Assembly: GCA_963555995.3 (NCBI GenBank) | Contig: OY821641.1 | Location: 3,584,001 to 3,648,000 of the forward strand | Source of the DNA: Vicinamibacteria bacterium | GTDB lineage: Bacteria > Acidobacteriota > Vicinamibacteria > Marinacidobacterales > Marinacidobacteraceae | DNA: 64,000 bases | Direction of reading: 5' to 3' | Shown: in pieces, positions 38,944-47,679 of the stretch | How positions within the stretch are numbered: the first letter of the stretch is position 1 | Layout of the letters: each line of letters begins with the position of its first letter | Made by a program: the position numbers and the translations under genes | The notes under the pieces: generated by a model | What the model was told of the DNA's origin: nothing | Databases searched by the model: none | What the model saw: only the letters and a program-made list of their open reading frames with translations

Positions 38944-39439
38944 GGGACCGCCGGCCTGGAACGCCGGTCTCCGGCCAGTTGCTGTGAAAATGCAGATCCG
39001 GTGCGATGTCAACCAGCGCAAGTGGCGACGCCGGCCGGGAGCGCCGGTCTTCAGACCGGCACGCGCTGCGCGACCGCGCAGCGCACGGCAGGACGCCGCC
39101 CCGCGTGATGGCGTTCGACTCTTGCTCCATCACGGCAAAGAGCGGTACGACGTCCGCGGGCCTTCGGCCCGCTGTGCCGGTCTGAAGACCGGCGCTCCCA
39201 GCGGGGCTCGCAGCCGTGTCCGTCATTTTCGTGCCCGGCGGGATGTGCGGGAGGACCGCACATGACGGTTTCTCCCGGTGGGAGCCGTCAGACCGGCACG
39301 CGCTGGGCGACCGCGCAGCGCACGGCAGGACGCCCCCCGCGTGATGGCGTTCGACTCCTGGTACATCATCGCAAAGAGCGGTACGACGTCCGCGGGCCTT
39401 CGGCCCGCTGTGCCGGTCTGAAGGCCCCCACCGGGAGAA
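38944..39439. repeat. REP cluster with two tandem REPIN copies
   Basis: Copy 1 at 39037-39199; copy 2 at 39270-39439 has a near-identical interior but ends TTCTCCCGGTGGGAGCC / GGCCCCCACCGGGAGAA. Confidence 0.85.
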
Positions 39440-39524: not shown

Positions 39525-41834
39525 CTAGAAGAACCTGAGCGAGTAGCTGATCCGGAAGCCGCGGCCCATCTGGGGGGCCATGTCCTTGATCAGCGAATTG
39601 TGGTGGCTGTACTCGGCGTCGGTGATGTTGTAGGCGCCGAGCGAGATGTTCGAGGTCGTGCTCGCTCGGACGAACACGTAGGAGGCGGTGAAGTCGAACA
39701 CCGCGTATCCGTCGGTCGGGGTCTCGTCCCGGTAGAGACGGTCCATCCGGGCGGCCCAGCGTAGCCGGGGCGCGAGGCGCAGCTTGCCGACCGGGACGTC
39801 GAGCCGCAGGTGACCGCCGAGCGGGGGGATGCGCGGCACGTACTCGCCGCTCGCGAGCTTGGCGTCCACGTAGGCGGCGTTCGCCACCAGCTCGGCGGCG
39901 CCGAGGCTCAGGTGTCCCTCCGCTTCGAAGCCCTGGTAGGTCGCGTCCGATTGCTGGAACAGCCAGACGGGCAAGCCGCTGATCCTTCCGCCCAGCACCT
40001 CTCCGAAGACGAAGTTGGAGATGTCGTAACGGAAGACGCTGAGGCTCCCGGTGAGCGCTTCCGAACTCTGCCGGAGGCTCAGGTCGAATCCCAGCGACCG
40101 TTCCTGGTCGAGTTCGGGATTGCCGATCTCGTACGCCAGGTTCCCGATGTGGGGGCCGAAGTTGTAGAGCTCCTCGAGCGAGGGGGCGCGGGTCGCGAGG
40201 CTCGCCACGCCGACCAGGGCGGTGGAGCCGCCCACCGCGAGCCGGGCGCCGGTGCTCGCCGACGCGGTGAGGAAGTCGCGGTCCCGGACCTCCGCCGGCC
40301 GGAGCGGGTTCGTGTCTTCCCCGACGTCGTAGGCGTTTCGCTCGGCGCGCGCGCCGAGCAGCAGATCGAGTCGCTCGTTCGCTTCGATCTCGTTGTAGGT
40401 GAAGACCGCGAACGCGTTCTGCCGGGTCTCCGGCGCCAGCGCTTCGTGGCCCCAGGCTTCGTAGTCCCGCACGTTGCCCCAGACCCCGACCCGGCTGTTC
40501 ACCCGCCCCGCCGGTTTCCTGAGCTCACCGCGGAAGACGACCGACCGGTTGTCGAAGTGGGTCGCCACGATCTCTTCCCCACTGGCCTCGAAGGTCTCGA
40601 TCTCGTCCTGGTCGTAGTCGGCGTAGCGGACCGTGAACTCCGCCTCGTCGAACACGAAACCGAGGCCGCGGAACCCGAAGTCGGTACGGAACTGCCGCCG
40701 GTTCATCGTGACGTCCACCGTCAGTTTTTCGTCGTCGCCAACCGGCCCATGGTCGTGCCCCACGTGGCTGCCGTGGAAGTCTCCGGCGAACGGAACCCCG
40801 TAGCGGGCGTCATCGAGGCGCACGGTGCCCGAGAGCCAGGCCCGCTCGCCGAAGAGACCGAACCCCGCCTCTCCCTGATTCATGGAGCTTTCGGTGTTCT
40901 CGACCACCCCGGCGGGGGTGTTGTAGTCCTCGGTCCGGTTCGCGTTGCCCCCGCCCCAGGCGAACCAGTTCCCGCCGGACGCCTGCGCGCGAACGCCGCC
41001 CCGGGTCCCGGCGTCGTTGGTCGAGTAGTCGAGGTTGGCCTGCCCCCGGAATCCGGGCGGCGGCGAGTGCGCGAGGTGGGACGCCATGGAGATCACGTTC
41101 ACCGTGCCGCCGATGGCGTTCGACCCGTAGAGCAGCGTCGCCGGCCCCCGCACGACCTCGATCCGCTCGGCCTGGAGCGGGTCCACCGGCACGCCGTGGT
41201 CCGCCGACTGGCTGCCCAGATCGCTGGTCCGCACGCCGTCCTCCATGACGAGCACCCGGTCTCCGTCGAAGCCGCGCACGATCGGGCGCGCCGAGCCGGG
41301 TCCGAAGCTGCGCATGGCCACGCCGGTCGTGCCCTCGAGCAGCTCCGCGAGGGTGCGCGCCGACTCGTTCTGGAGGTCGAGCCCCTCCATCGCGTGCACC
41401 GAGCCGAAGGTCTCGAACGGCGACGAATCGCTGGCCGAGGCGGTGACCGTGACCCGTTCGTGCATCCGGTGCCGGGACCCGAGCACGATCGGCTCGCCGA
41501 TCTCGAGGTCCTCCTCCTGTTCGATATCGATCGCCACGGTCCGGACCGCGCTGAGGAAGCCGAGGTCCACATGGAGGGTGACGGAGCCGAGGTGGTCCAC
41601 GTCCACGAACGCGAAGCGGCCGGCCTCGTCGGTATGGACCACCTGGTCGGTCTCGATCAGCAGGACTTCGGCGTCGCCCGCCGGTTCGCCGGTTTCGGCG
41701 ATGAGCACCGTGCCCGAGATCGTCGGATGCGCCCAGGCGGCGGTCGCGAAGGCGAGGCAGGCGGCGAGCGGACCGGCCCGCCGGAAGCCGCGCATGAGAA
41801 GCAAGAAGGGTGGAAGGAGAGCATTCCGCAGCAC
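39525..41834 (-). CDS. TonB-dependent receptor, ZnuD-like metal uptake type, with His-rich loop
   Basis: GTG after AGGAGG; SFGPGSARPIVRG, SQSADHG, IEVVRGPATLLYGSNAIGG, HGSHVGHDHG, ELYNFGPH, terminal RFF. Confidence 0.9.
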   Translation of the reverse strand: MLRNALLPPFLLLMRGFRRAGPLAACLAFATAAWAHPTISGTVLIAETGEPAGDAEVLLIETDQVVHTDEAGRFAFVDVDHLGSVTLHVDLGFLSAVRTVAIDIEQEEDLEIGEPIVLGSRHRMHERVTVTASASDSSPFETFGSVHAMEGLDLQNESARTLAELLEGTTGVAMRSFGPGSARPIVRGFDGDRVLVMEDGVRTSDLGSQSADHGVPVDPLQAERIEVVRGPATLLYGSNAIGGTVNVISMASHLAHSPPPGFRGQANLDYSTNDAGTRGGVRAQASGGNWFAWGGGNANRTEDYNTPAGVVENTESSMNQGEAGFGLFGERAWLSGTVRLDDARYGVPFAGDFHGSHVGHDHGPVGDDEKLTVDVTMNRRQFRTDFGFRGLGFVFDEAEFTVRYADYDQDEIETFEASGEEIVATHFDNRSVVFRGELRKPAGRVNSRVGVWGNVRDYEAWGHEALAPETRQNAFAVFTYNEIEANERLDLLLGARAERNAYDVGEDTNPLRPAEVRDRDFLTASASTGARLAVGGSTALVGVASLATRAPSLEELYNFGPHIGNLAYEIGNPELDQERSLGFDLSLRQSSEALTGSLSVFRYDISNFVFGEVLGGRISGLPVWLFQQSDATYQGFEAEGHLSLGAAELVANAAYVDAKLASGEYVPRIPPLGGHLRLDVPVGKLRLAPRLRWAARMDRLYRDETPTDGYAVFDFTASYVFVRASTTSNISLGAYNITDAEYSHHNSLIKDMAPQMGRGFRISYSLRFF

Positions 41835-41926
41835 GGTGGGACCTCCTGTGGTCTCTGGGTGCGGAGGAACCGGACGTTCAGAGGCGCCGGCGGGGCCGAA
41901 CGGTTCCCGACCTGGAGTGCCGACGG

Positions 41927-42205
41927 TCAGGCGGGCGGCGCGCGGGGGACCGCCGGAGTCGGAGCCGGCTCCGAGGTGGCGAAAGGCACCACCGGGGCGC
42001 GGGGCTTCGACTCGTGCCGTGGGAAGGGCAACTCCGGCCGACCCTCGAGCGCGGGAACTCCGGTTTCCGCGACCTTGCAGACCCCGCAGGGGTTGTCCGT
42101 CTGGTCCGGATGCTCGTGCGCCGGGACGGCCAGCGGGGTGGCCAGCACCAGGGCGGCCACGGCCGCACCCGCCAGAAATCGAGACCGGAGGCTGACGTGT
42201 TTCAC
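41927..42205 (-). CDS. DUF2946-like (CruR/CutF-type) upstream ORF: signal segment, HxH, CxxC, Pro-rich linker, C-terminal RAPP
   Basis: MKHVSLRSRFLAGAAVAALVLATPLAVPAHEHPDQTDNPCGVC...PAPTPAVPRAPPA*; ends 92 nt upstream of the TBDT start. Confidence 0.8.
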   Translation of the reverse strand: MKHVSLRSRFLAGAAVAALVLATPLAVPAHEHPDQTDNPCGVCKVAETGVPALEGRPELPFPRHESKPRAPVVPFATSEPAPTPAVPRAPPA

Positions 42206-42262
42206 CGCTGTGGAACCTGCAACCGGCCATGCTACCACCGGGAGTCGAAGCCCCGGAATCCG

Positions 42263-42305
42263 GGAACGCCGGGTCCAGACCGGCACCGCGGGCCGCAGGC
42301 CCGCG
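42263..42305. repeat. Degenerate REP plus GCGGGCC/GGCCCGC hairpin between the second TBDT and the uORF
   Basis: GGAACGCCGGGTCCAGACCGGCACCGCGGGCCGCAGGCCCGCG. Confidence 0.7.
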
Positions 42306-42325: not shown

Positions 42326-44617
42326 CTAGAAGAACCGAACGGAGTAGCTCACCCGCACCCCCCGCCCCATCTGCGCCGCCACGTCCTTGATCACCGACGT
42401 GTGATGCCGGTACACCGCGTCCGTCAGGTTGTGTCCCACCAGCGACAGGTGGTGGGTCGCGTTCCCGGTAAGGAGCAGCCAGGACACCGTCAGGTCGAGC
42501 ACCGCGTAGCCGTCGGTCGGCGTCTCCCCGGCGTGGAAGCGGTCCATCCGCGCGGCCCAGCGCAGCCGCGGCGCGACCCGCAGCCCCCGGAACGGGACAT
42601 CCAGTTTCACCTGCCCGTTCAGCGGTGGGATCCGGGGCGCGTGCTGGCCGAGTGCAGGGAACTCCGCGTCCACCCACGAAGCGCTCGCGGTCAGGTCGGC
42701 GCTCCCGACCCGGACGCGGCCGTCCGCCTCGAACCCGAGGTGGCGGGAGTCGGCCTGTTCGGTCGAGATCACCGTGACCCCGCCCCGGCCTCCGGCGGTG
42801 GCCCCGTAGGTGAAGTTGTCAATGCCGTACCAGAAGACGGAGGCGCTGCCGGCGAAGACGTCGGCATCGCGCCGGAGGCTCAGGTCGAAGCCGCGCGACC
42901 GCTCGCGTTCGAGGAGGGGGTTGCCGATCTCGAACGCCTGGATGCCGGCGTCGAGGCCGAAGTTGTAGAGCTCTTCGAGCGCCGGGGCGCGGGTCGAGAG
43001 CGTCGCGGTCCCGACGAGGGCGTGTTCCTCGTCCAGGTCCAGCCGCAGCCCCGCGTTCGCCGAGGCTCCGAGGAACTCCCGGTCCACCACCGCGGGCGGT
43101 TCGAACTCCTCGCCCTCCACTTCCAGTTCTTCCTCCTCATCGTCGTCGTCATCGCCCTCCCCGGGTGCCGGGCGATCGTCCGCGTCATACGCGTTGTTCT
43201 CCAGCCGGGCGCCGAGCAGCACGCTGAGCCGGTCCGTGGCCTGGACCTCCCCCAGCGCGAAGGCGGCGAGCGCGGTGTGGCGGGTGTCGGGAGCCAGCGC
43301 TTCCGGGCCCGCGGAGGTGAACTCCCGGAGGTTCGCCCACGCTCCCACCCGGCTCTGGAAGCGCCCCCGCGATCCCTCCAACTCGCCGCGGAAGACGAGC
43401 GATTGGTTCTCGTGGTGGGTTTCGAGTTCGGGGGGCCCGTCGCCCTCCATCTCGATCTCGTCCTGGACGAACTCGCTGTAACGAACTGTAAAGGCCGCCG
43501 CCTCGAAGAAGTCCCCGAGGTCTTTGAGTCCGAAATCCGCGCGCAGTTGCCGCCGCTCCATGGTCACGTCCACGGTCTCCTCCTCCCCCTCGTCGGCGCC
43601 GTGGAGCATTCCCGCGAGCGGGACCCCGTAGCGGCTGTCGTCGAGGCGGACGCCCGCCGAGAGCCAGGCGCGGTCGCCGCGGAGTCCGAGACCGGCTTCG
43701 CCCTGGTCCAGCGCGGTGTCGGAGCCGTCCACGTCGCCGAGCGGCGACCGGTAGTCGCCGGTCCGCCGGGTGTTGCCGCCGCCCCAGGCGAACCACCCGT
43801 CCCCGCCGGCATGCACCCGCGCGCCGGCGTAGCGGCCGTCGTCGGCGCTCCCGGCGCCGAGGCTGGCGCGGCCCTCGAACCCGGAGGTCGCACCGTGCGC
43901 CAACTGCGAGCCGGCGGAGACCACGTTCACCACGCCCCCGACCGCGTTTGTGCCGTAGAGCAGCGCCGCCGGTCCGCGCACGACCTCGATCCGCTCCGCC
44001 TGGGTGGGGTCCGCGATCGTTCCCTGCTCGGCCGCCTGGCTGCCGATGTCGCCGGTGCGCACCCCGTCTTCGGTGATCAGCACCCGGTCGCCGTCGAACC
44101 CGCGGATGATGGGACGCGCGGCGCCGGGACCGAGACTGCGGATCGCCACGCCGGGGGCGCCTTCGAGCAGCTCCGCGAGGCTGGGCACGCCCTCGATCAG
44201 GTCGAGGCCCTCGACGGAGGACGCCGACCCGAACTCCGCGAGTCCCGACGACGCGCCGGAGGCCGCGGTCACCGTGACGTGCTCGTGGGTGGTTCCGCGG
44301 AACGTGATCCGGACCGCGTCCGGGAGGACGATCTCGGGGCCGGGATCGGTGTCCAGCGTCAGGCCGGCTTCGCCCCACAGGAACCCGAGCTGGGCGTGGA
44401 TCGTGATCCGCGAACCCACGCGCACGCCTTCGAACGTGAAACGGCCCTCCGCGCCGGCGCGCGTCGTCGCGCCCGTTTCGCGGAGGGTCACCTCGGCGCC
44501 GCGCGCCGGAGCCCCGGTGGCGGCCACCAGGACCAGGCCGGCGATCCTCGACTGCGCGGCCCCGGTGGTCGCGATCAGCGCGCCCGCGAGCGCGAGACCG
44601 GCGGTGCGGGCTGTCAA
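42326..44617 (-). CDS. TonB-dependent receptor, paralog of 39525-41834, with acidic loop
   Basis: TTG overlaps the upstream TGA; GPGAARPIIRG, IEVVRGPAALLYG, DDDDDEEEE loop, terminal RFF. Confidence 0.9.
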   Translation of the reverse strand: MTARTAGLALAGALIATTGAAQSRIAGLVLVAATGAPARGAEVTLRETGATTRAGAEGRFTFEGVRVGSRITIHAQLGFLWGEAGLTLDTDPGPEIVLPDAVRITFRGTTHEHVTVTAASGASSGLAEFGSASSVEGLDLIEGVPSLAELLEGAPGVAIRSLGPGAARPIIRGFDGDRVLITEDGVRTGDIGSQAAEQGTIADPTQAERIEVVRGPAALLYGTNAVGGVVNVVSAGSQLAHGATSGFEGRASLGAGSADDGRYAGARVHAGGDGWFAWGGGNTRRTGDYRSPLGDVDGSDTALDQGEAGLGLRGDRAWLSAGVRLDDSRYGVPLAGMLHGADEGEEETVDVTMERRQLRADFGLKDLGDFFEAAAFTVRYSEFVQDEIEMEGDGPPELETHHENQSLVFRGELEGSRGRFQSRVGAWANLREFTSAGPEALAPDTRHTALAAFALGEVQATDRLSVLLGARLENNAYDADDRPAPGEGDDDDDEEEELEVEGEEFEPPAVVDREFLGASANAGLRLDLDEEHALVGTATLSTRAPALEELYNFGLDAGIQAFEIGNPLLERERSRGFDLSLRRDADVFAGSASVFWYGIDNFTYGATAGGRGGVTVISTEQADSRHLGFEADGRVRVGSADLTASASWVDAEFPALGQHAPRIPPLNGQVKLDVPFRGLRVAPRLRWAARMDRFHAGETPTDGYAVLDLTVSWLLLTGNATHHLSLVGHNLTDAVYRHHTSVIKDVAAQMGRGVRVSYSVRFF

Positions 44618-45219
44618 CGTGGAATCAGCTCGATCACGATGTTCCGGAGGGGCGCGTCCCCGATGTTCCTGACGACGTGCACCACCGGCGGGTTGAACTT
44701 AATGGTGCCGGGGATCTGGGTCTTGAACACCTCGTCGGCGCCGTCCGGCCACTGCTGCAGCTCGGTGGCGCCCATCACGAGCACCACCCGCTGCGCGTGC
44801 GAGTGCCGCTCCCGGGTGTCCCCGGGTTCAAGACGCTCCTCGAACACGAAGTAGCCCTCGGCGTCGTGGAGCCGTTCGTTCTTGCCGGCGGGAATGGCGA
44901 CCGCCGGCCCTTCCACCGAAGGGGGATCCGGCTTCAGGTTCACCTCCGCGAAGTCGCCCTCGATCTCGTAGGAGGTCCCCGCCTCCGCCACGAACACCTC
45001 GGCGTAGCCGAGTTCGACGGTCGAACCGCCTGCGGCGACCTTCACGTCACCGAACGCGACCACCACCCGGTCCCCGCAACCGGGACCCGCCTCGGCGCAC
45101 GGCGCGGCGTTCCGGTGCACGGCGGCGTAGTCGTTGTCGAGCACGAGGGTCCCGTCCTCGCCCGCTGCGGGTGCAGCCAGCAGAACGGTCAGCGAAAGAA
45201 GTCCCAGACGGCGCATCAC
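44614..45219 (-). CDS. Exported cupin-like protein
   Basis: Signal peptide; LEPGDTRERHSH ... PVVHVVRNIG cupin motifs. Confidence 0.65.
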   Translation of the reverse strand: MMRRLGLLSLTVLLAAPAAGEDGTLVLDNDYAAVHRNAAPCAEAGPGCGDRVVVAFGDVKVAAGGSTVELGYAEVFVAEAGTSYEIEGDFAEVNLKPDPPSVEGPAVAIPAGKNERLHDAEGYFVFEERLEPGDTRERHSHAQRVVLVMGATELQQWPDGADEVFKTQIPGTIKFNPPVVHVVRNIGDAPLRNIVIELIPR

Positions 45220-45243
45220 CGCAATCTAACAGGGTTCACCGCC

Positions 45244-45407
45244 GGGAGCGCCGGTCTTCAGACCGGCACAGCGGGCCGCAGGCCCGCGGATGTCGCGTCG
45301 CCTTGCGCGGTGATGAACCGAGAGCAGACCGTCACCGTGCAGGTCAGGCGTCGTGCCGTGCGCCGCGCTGTCGCGCAGCGCGTGCCGGTCTGAAGACCGG
45401 CGCTCCC
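45244..45407. mobile_element. REPIN/MITE-like element
   Basis: GGGAGCGCCGGTCTTCAGACCGGCAC ... GTGCCGGTCTGAAGACCGGCGCTCCC. Confidence 0.8.
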
Positions 45408-45471
45408 AGCCGTCGCAACCCCCGCTACCATTCGAGCCGGAATTTGTCGCAGACGGTCTGGAGAAGAGGCG

Positions 45472-47679
45472 TTGACAGGGCGAAGTGAAACCCCCCGGCC
45501 GCTGGTCATCCTGTTGGCTGCGGGAGCGCTGTGCGCGGGTCCGTCCTCCGCCGTCGCCCAGGAAGCCCCGGCCCCCGACCGGTCCGACTGGGGCGCCCCC
45601 GGCCTCCACCGCGTCGCCCTCTATCCGACCCCGGACCTCGCCCCCGCCGGCGGCACCGCCTTCCTGCGCTGGGACCCGAGCCCCTTCGGGGTCTCGGTGA
45701 CCCGCGACGGCAGCCAGCGCTACCGGCTCGACCTCGAGATCGAGGGACTCCCCGACCCCGGTTCGCTCGGCGACTACCGCACCTACGTCGCCTGGGCGAC
45801 GACGCCCATCATGGACCCGGTGGTGCGGCTGGGAGAGGTCGGCAACGGGACCTTCGCGGACCTCGGCCCCGTCGCCTTCGACAAGTTCGTGATCCTGGTG
45901 AGCGCCGAGCCCTCGGCGGCAGTCGAGACCCGCACCGGCCGGCTCGCCCTGCGCGGGGCCTCGCCGTCCACCCGGATCCTCCCCGACAACCACCTCATGG
46001 TCCCGGTGACCGGCACCGGCGAGAGCGCCGCGCTGCCCATGGACCACGGCGTGATGGACCACGCGGCCATGGGGCACGGACCGGCGTCCGACGAGCCGGC
46101 GTGGTCGCATCCGCCGATGCTTCCGGAGACTCCCATGGTCCCCGGGCTCGGGCATCTGCGGCCGGAGCCGCTTCCGTTCCTGCCGCGGGCGACCGCGGAC
46201 GGAACGCTCCCGGACGCCGTTCCCTCGCAGGTGGTGCGGCTCCGCGACGGGCAGACGCTCGACCTGATCGCGGGACGGGTCCGCCGGACCATCCACGGCC
46301 GCGACTACGTGATGTACGGGTTCAACGGGCAGTACCCGGGCCCCCTCATCCACGTGGACCAGGACTCCACCATCTTCGTCAACTTCGAGAACCAGACGTC
46401 CTGGCCCACCGCGATCCACTGGCACGGAATACGCCTCGACAACGCCTTCGACGGGGTGCCTCACCTCACCCAGGACCCGGTGCCCCCCGGCGGGCGTTTC
46501 GAGTACCGGATCTTCTTCCCCGACGCCGGCCTCTACTGGTACCACCCCCACCACCGCGAGGAGGTCCAGCAGGACCTCGGGCTCTACGGGAACATGCTGG
46601 TGGAGGCGCCGCCCGACGCCTGGTACGCGCCGGTCCACCGCGAGGAGATCCTCATGCTCGACGACCTCCTGATCGCCGACGACGGGGGGCTCTTCCCCTT
46701 CGGGACCGAGCGGGCCACCCATTCGCTCATGGGGCGCTTCGGCAACCTGATGCTCGTGAACGGGGAACCGGAGTACGACCTGACCGTCGACCGGGGGGAG
46801 GTCGTCCGCTTCTTCCTCACGAACGTCTCGAACACCCGCACCTTCAACCTCTCGTTCGGCGAGCCCGGCGCGCACCGCGTCAAGGTCGTCGGGTCGGACC
46901 TCTCGAAGTTCGAGCGCGAGACCTGGGTGGATTCGGTGGCGCTCGCGCCCGCCGAGCGTTACATCGTGGAGGTCCGCTACGAGACGGCGGGAGAGCACGC
47001 CCTCGAGAACCGGGTGCGCCCGCTGGAGCACACCTTCGGCGGCTACTTCTCGCGGATCACCCGGCTCGGGACGGTGACGGTGGGGGACCGGGACGCCGAC
47101 CCCGCGGGAGCGCCGGGCTACGACGAACTGCGGGAGCACGCTCCGGTGGTGGAGGACGTGGCGCGCTTCCGGAGCCACTTCGACCGGGAGCCGGACTACG
47201 AACTCCTGCTCACGATGGATGTGACCGGCCTCGACCCCGCCATCATGCAGCGCATGCGCGCCGACCGGGTTTTCTTCCCGGCCGTCGAGTGGGCGGACAC
47301 CATGCCGATGATGAACTCGGTGGCTACCCCGGAGGAGGTCCGCTGGATCGTGCGCGAGCCTGCGACGGGCCGCGAGGACATGGACATCGCCTGGCGCTTC
47401 CGGGTCGGGGACGTGGTCACGATCCGGATCACGAACGACGCCGCCGCCCTCCACGCGATGCAGCACCCCTTCCACATCCACGGCCAGCGGTTCCTGGTGC
47501 TGCGCCGGAACGGCGCGCCGGTGACGAACCAGGTGTTCAAGGACACCGTGCTCATCGCGGCGGGGGAGACCGTGGACCTCCTGCTCGAGATCACGAACCC
47601 CGGGAAGTGGATGGCCCACTGCCACATCGCCGAGCACCTCGAAACCGGCATGCGCTTCGTCTTCGAGGTGGACCCGTAG
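45472..47679 (+). CDS. Multicopper oxidase with extra N-terminal domain and Met/His-rich linker
   Basis: IHWHG, WYHPH, HPFHIHG and HCHIAEHLETGM copper ligands; MDHGVMDHAAMGHG; signal peptide. Confidence 0.92.
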   Translation: MTGRSETPRPLVILLAAGALCAGPSSAVAQEAPAPDRSDWGAPGLHRVALYPTPDLAPAGGTAFLRWDPSPFGVSVTRDGSQRYRLDLEIEGLPDPGSLGDYRTYVAWATTPIMDPVVRLGEVGNGTFADLGPVAFDKFVILVSAEPSAAVETRTGRLALRGASPSTRILPDNHLMVPVTGTGESAALPMDHGVMDHAAMGHGPASDEPAWSHPPMLPETPMVPGLGHLRPEPLPFLPRATADGTLPDAVPSQVVRLRDGQTLDLIAGRVRRTIHGRDYVMYGFNGQYPGPLIHVDQDSTIFVNFENQTSWPTAIHWHGIRLDNAFDGVPHLTQDPVPPGGRFEYRIFFPDAGLYWYHPHHREEVQQDLGLYGNMLVEAPPDAWYAPVHREEILMLDDLLIADDGGLFPFGTERATHSLMGRFGNLMLVNGEPEYDLTVDRGEVVRFFLTNVSNTRTFNLSFGEPGAHRVKVVGSDLSKFERETWVDSVALAPAERYIVEVRYETAGEHALENRVRPLEHTFGGYFSRITRLGTVTVGDRDADPAGAPGYDELREHAPVVEDVARFRSHFDREPDYELLLTMDVTGLDPAIMQRMRADRVFFPAVEWADTMPMMNSVATPEEVRWIVREPATGREDMDIAWRFRVGDVVTIRITNDAAALHAMQHPFHIHGQRFLVLRRNGAPVTNQVFKDTVLIAAGETVDLLLEITNPGKWMAHCHIAEHLETGMRFVFEVDP

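Follow-up and report, generated by a model that had tools for sequence, protein, structure and literature searches.

Introduction

Sensing of a metal by a nascent peptide has until now been tested only for copper, in the leader peptides CruR and CutF. CruR (Bp2923; DUF2946/PF11162) is encoded before the TonB-dependent receptor BfrG of Bordetella pertussis, and in peptides of its type the CxxC and RAPP motifs are separated by 45 ± 1–2 residues; metal relieves the arrest and triggers Rho termination and, according to the same paper, no riboswitch has been described for copper or zinc (PMC9426467). The arrest of CruR at RAPP has been demonstrated in vitro, in a study that also reports RAPP leaders upstream of TonB receptors to be universal in Gram-negative bacteria (PMC12992588). 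CutF precedes cutO in Rhodobacter capsulatus, where stalling opens a stem over the next Shine-Dalgarno sequence (bioRxiv 10.1101/2025.02.05.636593), and some CutF relatives that carry His only have been proposed to sense nickel or cobalt (PMC9973294). Here we analyze a 92-codon leader gene that precedes the gene of a ZnuD-like TonB-dependent receptor in a Vicinamibacteria bacterium (phylum Acidobacteriota), within a window of 64,000 nucleotides (positions 3,584,001 to 3,648,000 of contig OY821641.1, assembly GCA_963555995.3); coordinates below are window positions unless another contig is named. The source genome comprises 3.8 Mb at 70% GC and is 93% complete.

The leader shares with CruR an export segment, a CxxC motif, a spacer of 44–45 residues, a C-terminal RAPP, its place as first gene and a long spacer to a TonB-dependent importer, and it is predicted to work with the same polarity, a stall switching the next gene on. 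It differs from CruR, which has 145 residues, in its length of 92, in scoring under the Pfam cut-off and in carrying His at its predicted mature N-terminus; moreover, its receptor is of the ZnuD type, no recognized copper-homeostasis gene lies downstream, and Shine-Dalgarno occlusion is predicted in place of Rho termination. Like CutF, it is predicted to be a small exported leader with a spacer of less than 100 nt and an RNA structure over the next Shine-Dalgarno sequence. In CutF, however, the motifs are CxxxC and PPP, stalling occurs in the presence of copper and the gene controlled, by means of one stem-loop, is that of a detoxifying oxidase, whereas here CxxC and RAPP precede an importer and a relay of several helices is predicted. 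As a small secretory protein with a C-terminal RAPP and a TonB receptor downstream, the leader falls within the class counted in a survey of RAPP/RGPP small open reading frames which, in the parts considered here, names neither a metal nor a receptor type nor an RNA mechanism for the TonB class (PMC12992588). Export-machinery genes follow ApdA and ApdP (PMC10951233), unlike the TonB receptor found here.

Our proposal, to which we give an even chance from what can be read in the sequence, is that a CruR-type leader stalls at RAPP when a metal, most likely zinc, is scarce, whereupon the spacer would refold and the receptor would be translated. This would be a system of a kind already known, and its value would lie in the metal and in the RNA mechanism. 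A preliminary description of the same stretch had seen in it the logic of CruR and CutF in a distant phylum; the CruR-like leader stood up to scrutiny, whereas its spread had already been published (PMC12992588) and non-copper sensing already proposed (PMC9973294).

Results

The leader has the anatomy of CruR

The leader gene (41927–42205, minus strand) starts with GTG and ends in PRAPPA followed by the stop codon, and is annotated here as a predicted arrest peptide of the CruR/DUF2946 type. A hydrophobic export segment, conserved among homologues, covers approximately residues 10–29 (42119–42178; hydropathy 2.25 over 11 residues). Signal cleavage follows the A-x-A rule, on which basis we predict that this N-terminal export signal is cleaved after VPA. 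The HEH triplet (residues 30–32; 42110–42118) would then form the mature N-terminus and supply one or more metal ligands, and CGVC (residues 40–43; 42077–42088) is the predicted metal site. RAPP occupies residues 88–91 (41933–41944), and the position of the stall in ApdA and ApdP (PMC10951233) and in CruR (PMC12992588) served to place the predicted P-site codon at 41938–41936. An extended -10-like box, TGGTAGCAT, lies at 42229–42237 on the same strand and is the predicted promoter of the leader–receptor unit. All the features that the preliminary description had named were found in place on the minus strand.

The first His of HEH is invariant in 70/70 aligned library homologues, picked from 150, while the second varies. 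Both Cys of CGVC are invariant in two leader alignments, and CxxC is present in 31 of the 32 receptor-linked homologues; all 32 of these end in R[AG]PP, one residue and the stop, a motif by which they were chosen. The Pro-rich spacer noted earlier is present and its length is kept, but its residues drift and its sequence is not conserved.

DUF2946 (PF11162) is the best Pfam match of the leader, but at 12.8 bits (E 0.2) it lies under the cut-off of 23.7, as does the best of the paralogous leaders (19.6 bits). Weak matches to this model were returned by 14 of 27 homologues (best E 6e-4) and 15 of 70 (best E 3e-4). A search against DUF2946, proposed in the preliminary description, gives this family as the best match without granting membership: by its anatomy the leader is best described as a divergent CruR/DUF2946-type peptide, resembling CruR outside the formal limits of the family. 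The features that argue for a CruR-like arrest leader are its motifs, the 44-residue spacing, the export segment, the position as first gene before a TonB receptor and the sub-threshold DUF2946 similarity, and we consider it very probable that the 92-codon gene is a functional arrest leader.

The leader is a conserved coding gene

When all six frames of the 3.8-Mb genome were searched with a strict pattern (CxxC, 40–48 residues, R[AG]PP, stop within 7), six matches were obtained, and the five that also have a hydrophobic segment are the leader and four paralogues; decoy motifs in the same search gave 0, 0, 1 and 0 matches. A looser combination of CxxC with a RAPP-like motif is frequent (35/51,983 stop-to-stop frames), as is R[AGS]PP near a stop in off-frames of the genome (570/51,983). 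Since the looser pattern is common, the case for the leader is carried by the spacing and the signal segment.

Relatives were searched with the receptor and the DNA upstream was inspected. The 19 loci retrieved in this way among species genomes belong to Acidobacteriota, many labelled Vicinamibacteria; the search gave 45 receptor rows, of which 32 carry a leader. The ratio of nonsynonymous to synonymous substitution rates (dN/dS) was 0.24–0.63 in all 13 gap-free comparisons to the window leader, which share ancestry with one another. The leader is under purifying selection and is a real, conserved coding gene. Its CxxC-to-RAPP spacing is 44 residues in 28 of the 32 receptor-linked homologues (40, 45 and 46 occur once each) and in 128/150 library matches, the latter count being to some extent circular, since this spacing is built into the profile. 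A start codon lies 39 codons 5' of the first Cys in 15/32 homologues, and is ATG in 3 of those. No Shine-Dalgarno sequence was found ahead of the leader GTG. A G.TA...T box precedes 30/32 leaders, against 5.9 expected from shuffles. A longer start at 42286 (119 aa) was rejected: this start falls in a repeat-derived stretch 5' of the -10 box and lacks conservation.

A profile built from 27 leaders matched 24/24 genomes of the same family and 8/16 from elsewhere in the order; in the library, it found 881 representatives at E 0.001. Two exceptions come from genome G020: the leader at L017 lacks the second Cys, has extra His and precedes a receptor of the type found in this genus, and the leader at L107 has no transporter gene behind it.

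The receptor keeps a predicted zinc site

The receptor gene (39525–41834, minus strand; 769 aa) starts with GTG at 41834, 92 nt from the leader stop. The zinc ligands of Neisseria meningitidis ZnuD (PDB 4RDR) are Asp99, His100, Glu340 and His499 (PMC4557270). In a sequence alignment, D212, H213, E411 and H562 of the receptor fall on these four residues, and the receptor thus keeps all four ZnuD-type ligands, in what is predicted to be a zinc site. As in ZnuD, where four high-affinity ligands are accompanied by a His-rich loop (PMC4557270), a His loop stands at the matching place (HGSHVGHDHG, residues 354–363). The ZnuD model NF038289 was the best of 30 NCBIfam families, at 197.7 bits against a cut-off of 950, far above the copper receptor model (33 bits). 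ZnuD also headed a PDB profile search (E 3.9e-61, next 3.8e-27, OprC approximately 1e-17) and a fold search (E 3.3e-36; OprC 2.4e-28) for which alone an AlphaFold model was used (predicted local distance difference test, pLDDT, 76.7; ligand loop 206–214 below 50). Sequence and fold thus support the earlier designation as ZnuD-like. The receptor nevertheless differs from ZnuD in its approximately 20% identity, in an extra N-terminal carboxypeptidase-regulatory-like domain and in its score far under the NCBIfam cut-off. A search for OprC-type receptors gave 0/25 genomes, but its control search likewise returned nothing.

The D-H-E-H ligand set is kept in all 32 leader-bearing receptors. A paralogous receptor without a leader (42326–44617, minus strand), in which E-Q-E-D replaces D-H-E-H and an acidic loop the His loop, belongs to a clade of 11 rows with E-Q/H-E-D and no leader, which count as one event, not eleven; in a further leaderless row the site was not readable. 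The receptor tree is a quick tree, the thorough search being unfinished, and one partial row below 600 aa was dropped. The paralogue, which the preliminary description does not mention, is in tandem directly upstream of the unit and is 54% identical to the receptor.

The spacer holds two mutually exclusive sets of predicted helices

The 92-nt spacer was aligned in 23 sequences of the same family; a near-duplicate, other families and paralogues were left out. Element S (CCUGA; 41927–41931), made of the end of the last codon and the stop, pairs with B' (41910–41906) in 88.7% of cells, with one-sided changes only. Within the loop of this hairpin, just 3' of the stop, lies element A (GUCGGC; 41919–41924), complementary to element C (GCCGGC; 41891–41886), a word near-identical to A in the loop of an inner hairpin (41883–41897). 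A:C is paired in 95.7%; three of its six pairs vary on one side with pairing kept, and none on both. The inner hairpin is paired in 97.8%, with two-sided changes in 2/4 pairs. Element B'/B, UCGGGAACCG (41901–41910), has as its partner either S or element D, CGGUUCCUCC (41863–41872), which includes the anti-Shine-Dalgarno CCUCC. B:D (GGAACCG 41907–41901 with CGGTTCC 41872–41866) is paired in 90.7%, with two-sided changes in 3/8 pairs, and excludes the pairing of D with the Shine-Dalgarno sequence of the receptor gene (D:SD; CCTCC 41867–41863 with GGAGG 41846–41842), which is paired in 92.7% with two-sided changes in 1/5 pairs. GGAGG itself is conserved, with a GTG or ATG start behind it. All elements lie on the minus strand, and the two pairings put forward in the preliminary description, B:D and D:SD, are both conserved.

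These helices fall into two sets. S:B', A:C, the inner hairpin and D:SD are mutually compatible and together hide the Shine-Dalgarno sequence; this off-set is paired in 93.6% (0/500 shuffles). The on-set, B:D with the inner hairpin, has five pairs with two-sided changes (1/500 shuffles). Thus, the spacer contains two conserved, mutually exclusive sets of helices. B:D and D:SD lie beyond the footprint of a ribosome stalled with its P site at 41938, and an extra link to stalling is therefore needed, which S:B' and A:C supply: counted from the P site, S occupies +8 to +12 and A +15 to +20; the stalled ribosome would lie over S and extend as far as A. B would then be left to pair with D, a polarity in which stalling switches expression on, as in CruR and CutF. 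As read from these elements, the helix sets suggest that stalling frees the receptor Shine-Dalgarno sequence.

Two other pairings were rejected. A hairpin between the RAPP codons and element A is paired in 73.9%, and 500/500 shuffles were as high. Direct base pairing between the Pro codons and the Shine-Dalgarno sequence, which is the RNAalifold consensus, gave -6.2 kcal/mol for this leader versus -6.5 kcal/mol under synonymous randomization. In several paralogous leader groups, the Pro codons read CCU CCC G and match CGGGAGG, a simpler form of the same logic; the first Pro codon is CCU in 31/75 leaders versus 12% expected, although some of the automatic Shine-Dalgarno calls are wrong there. 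Pro-Pro codons, mostly CCU CCC G, that pair with the downstream Shine-Dalgarno sequence better than synonymous alternatives do were seen at L005, L006, L064, L071, L079, L081, L082, L086, L089, L095–L100 and L102, mostly across spacers of approximately 200 nt.

Related leaders and regulators of the genome

With the window leader, the genome holds five CxxC/RAPP leaders. Of the four others (G000:C1:478405, 2989304, 2996044 and 3001394, all on the minus strand; loci L056 and L057), two head receptor genes, one for a second ZnuD-like receptor accompanied by DUF3526 ABC-2 permeases and one for a siderophore-type receptor accompanied by ABC-2 genes, while a third heads an ABC-2 set and a fourth a MerC-like gene together with FecCD-type ABC genes; three of the four lie within 12 kb, each with its own gene set of the metal-uptake type. 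Behind the leader at 3001394 (L056:17720–18400), the Shine-Dalgarno sequence opens a remnant of approximately 30 codons. It resembles the beginning of the ABC-2 ATPase that the 2989304 leader heads, and its stop overlaps the start of the MerC-like gene. From this arrangement, the cassette seems to have been copied and re-aimed through translational coupling.

A further 60 loci from relatives yielded 59 leaders (one false match was dropped, two loci were empty and two had two leaders). The first genes behind them, classified mostly by BLAST against the genes of this genome, encode TonB receptors (19 siderophore-type, 6 ZnuD-like and 2 others), 16 ABC-2 ATPases, mostly followed by DUF3526 permeases, 5 MerC-like proteins, 2 binding proteins, 1 ADOP permease and 2 outer-membrane proteins of resistance-nodulation-division (RND) systems, with 6 unclassified or cut off. 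No copper gene was recognized as first gene behind these 59 leaders, although the two RND cases could be Cus-like. Related leaders stand before RND efflux genes in other families (L104 in G028, L112 in G035), where stalling would need the opposite metal logic. One of the 59 heads a BtuB-like TonB receptor with a CobN-like gene, an arrangement that is induced by zinc depletion in Pseudomonas (PMC4542158). The Zur regulon of Caulobacter uses ABC-2 genes (PMC4176598); in the literature searched, which left most subscription journals outside its scope, no paper was found that links DUF3526 with zinc. The ZnuHI proteins of Caulobacter may carry DUF3526.

ZnuD homologues are controlled by Zur in Pseudomonas (PMC4542158), whereas no match to Zur was found in this genome. 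Its one Fur-family gene scores 88–106 bits with Fur models and 41 with Zur, below every cut-off; among 25 genomes of the family, 19 have one such gene, 5 have two and 1 has none. No match was found in the genome to PCuAC or to ZnuA, and Caulobacter likewise gave no ZnuA match. There are two Rho-like genes (G000:C1:2382117–2383352 and 2733822–2734937), one of which passes the cut-off with 591.7 bits while the other, with 446.5 bits, does not.

Neighboring genes and transcript reads

A multicopper oxidase gene (45472–47679, plus strand) lies 3.3 kb upstream on the opposite strand; it neighbors the unit in relatives too, and is directly divergent from the leader in locus L055. A weakly cupin-like exported protein is encoded at 44614–45219 (minus strand). 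A dispersed repeat with inverted ends, apparently of high copy number in the DNA reads, occurs at 39025–39439, 42276–42305 and 45238–45415, a partial copy separating the stop of the upstream receptor gene from the leader promoter box. In two sponge metatranscriptome runs, only 0.10–0.17 of the sequence words were present; reads at 88% likeness formed contigs of flat depth from a related strain and were uninformative on transcription, strand or start.

Discussion

The proposed switch would work as follows. The ribosome would pause with the first Pro of RAPP in its P site, as in ApdA, ApdP and CruR, and the 44-residue distance from CxxC to RAPP would then place the His/CxxC segment just outside the ribosome, and probably also outside the translocon. 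Metal binding and folding of this segment would pull on the chain and end the stall. With no stalled ribosome, S would pair with B' and A with C, loop to loop, leaving D free for the Shine-Dalgarno sequence, and the receptor gene would be off. With a ribosome stalled over S and the edge of A, B:D would form instead, and the freed Shine-Dalgarno sequence would switch the gene on. Control is probably exerted in the main at translation initiation, and we lean slightly toward zinc as the main signal. The preliminary description had named zinc, nickel or cobalt as possible signals instead of copper; within that choice, the evidence favors zinc over nickel and cobalt.

Several observations weigh against this proposal. 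His and CxxC do not by themselves separate zinc from copper, which CruR senses through the same CxxC, and a multicopper oxidase gene stands beside the unit both here and in relatives. One leader (L017) has no second Cys, a receptor in G035 (L029/L116) has D-H-E-H and no leader, and the substrates of such receptors are hard to predict, as stated in the ZnuD paper (PMC4557270). Zur may yet be present, since the Fur-family protein falls below the cut-off of every model and the assembly covers 93% of the genome. As for the RNA, masking by the ribosome footprint eased opening of the Shine-Dalgarno sequence in only 17/30 homologues under nearest-neighbor folding, and B:D beat D:SD in 7/23, masked or unmasked, and in 9/23 with a trimmed model; in these models the two states are close in energy, and the A:C kissing pair is beyond their scoring. 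S:B' and A:C show no two-sided changes, and the structures were identified by visual inspection of these same sequences, which are kin and not independent.

An identical leader and RNA switch could instead respond to copper, as do CruR and CutF, with a receptor that imports copper or a unit that serves copper handling. Both tested members sense copper, through CxxC or CxxxC, the CxxC–RAPP spacing equals that of CruR, and the multicopper oxidase gene is a conserved neighbor, albeit on the other strand. An N-terminal X-X-His is a Cu(II)/Ni(II) motif, and one is possible at the N-terminus of the cleaved leader, but the third-position His that it requires varies. With a receptor nearer to ZnuD than to OprC in both sequence and fold, its ZnuD ligands kept, no PCuAC match in the genome and no recognized copper gene behind the 59 further leaders (two RND cases being possibly Cus-like), copper is fairly unlikely to be the signal. 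Nickel, cobalt or several divalent metals without strict choice would suit the proposal that His-rich CutF-like proteins sense nickel or cobalt (PMC9973294), as well as the siderophore-type and BtuB-like receptors and the CobN-like gene that family leaders also head. However, no nickel or cobalt transporter was recognized as first gene behind any leader examined, the receptor site is the zinc site of ZnuD and the CobN-like operon of Pseudomonas is itself zinc-regulated, and this choice of metal is distinctly improbable.

A different route to the same output is that the arrest peptide blocks Rho-dependent termination in or after the leader, as in CruR, the spacer hairpins acting as pause sites. 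A rho gene is present, the leader tail and spacer are C-rich (C/G 1.5–1.7, versus 1.43 and 1.62 for the 90th and 95th percentiles of the genome), and the folding energies yield no translation switch. Nonetheless, the CCUCC anti-Shine-Dalgarno is conserved beyond the needs of the B:D stem, the spacer has a strong and conserved structure, which a Rho loading site would not, and in several groups of paralogous leaders the Pro codons themselves spell a direct anti-Shine-Dalgarno; termination of this kind in place of translational control is accordingly unlikely, although the two can coexist. The leader might also monitor protein export or periplasmic disulfide formation, in the manner of SecM or the Apd peptides, with CxxC as a redox or folding element. 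RAPP peptides were first linked to the export machinery, disulfides belong to the CutF model, and RAPP leaders also precede DsbA/thioredoxin genes (PMC12992588). Against this, all five leaders of the genome head transport genes of the metal-uptake type, the His next to CxxC is invariant and the leader is missing from the clade without the metal site, which makes the idea very unlikely. We consider it least credible that the open reading frame regulates nothing, whether as a frame open by chance in GC-rich DNA or as the gene of a small exported metal-binding protein that only happens to be upstream. The frequency of R[AGS]PP near stops in off-frames and a leader GTG without a Shine-Dalgarno sequence speak for it, but purifying selection, the fixed spacing and stop position, the near-zero decoy counts and a stop region whose pairing with the spacer is conserved contradict it.

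To return to the zinc-sensing arrest leader, in the literature searched, most subscription journals being outside its scope, we found no published zinc-sensing member of this kind, no paper joining RAPP arrest peptides with ZnuD and, judged by title, none on a bacterial zinc-sensing leader. Three things are new here: the leader goes with an intact ZnuD site, for which the paralogue is a natural control; no Zur match was found; and a specific RNA relay is proposed. The locus makes the question of the metal directly testable: the leader is short, the ZnuD site is intact, the control paralogue lacks both, and the predicted helices provide exact compensating mutations. In this lineage, leaders of this kind may take the place of Zur. 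On a broader and rather doubtful extrapolation, Zur would have been replaced in these marine Acidobacteriota by zinc-sensing arrest leaders, five of them here, that gate the whole zinc-uptake set, the present leader doing so through a kissing-loop relay in which its stop codon is covered by the stalled ribosome and the receptor Shine-Dalgarno sequence is flipped open. A leader of this type that responds to zinc would reveal how a single small His/CxxC scaffold selects its metal, and would provide a Zur-independent route to the control of zinc.

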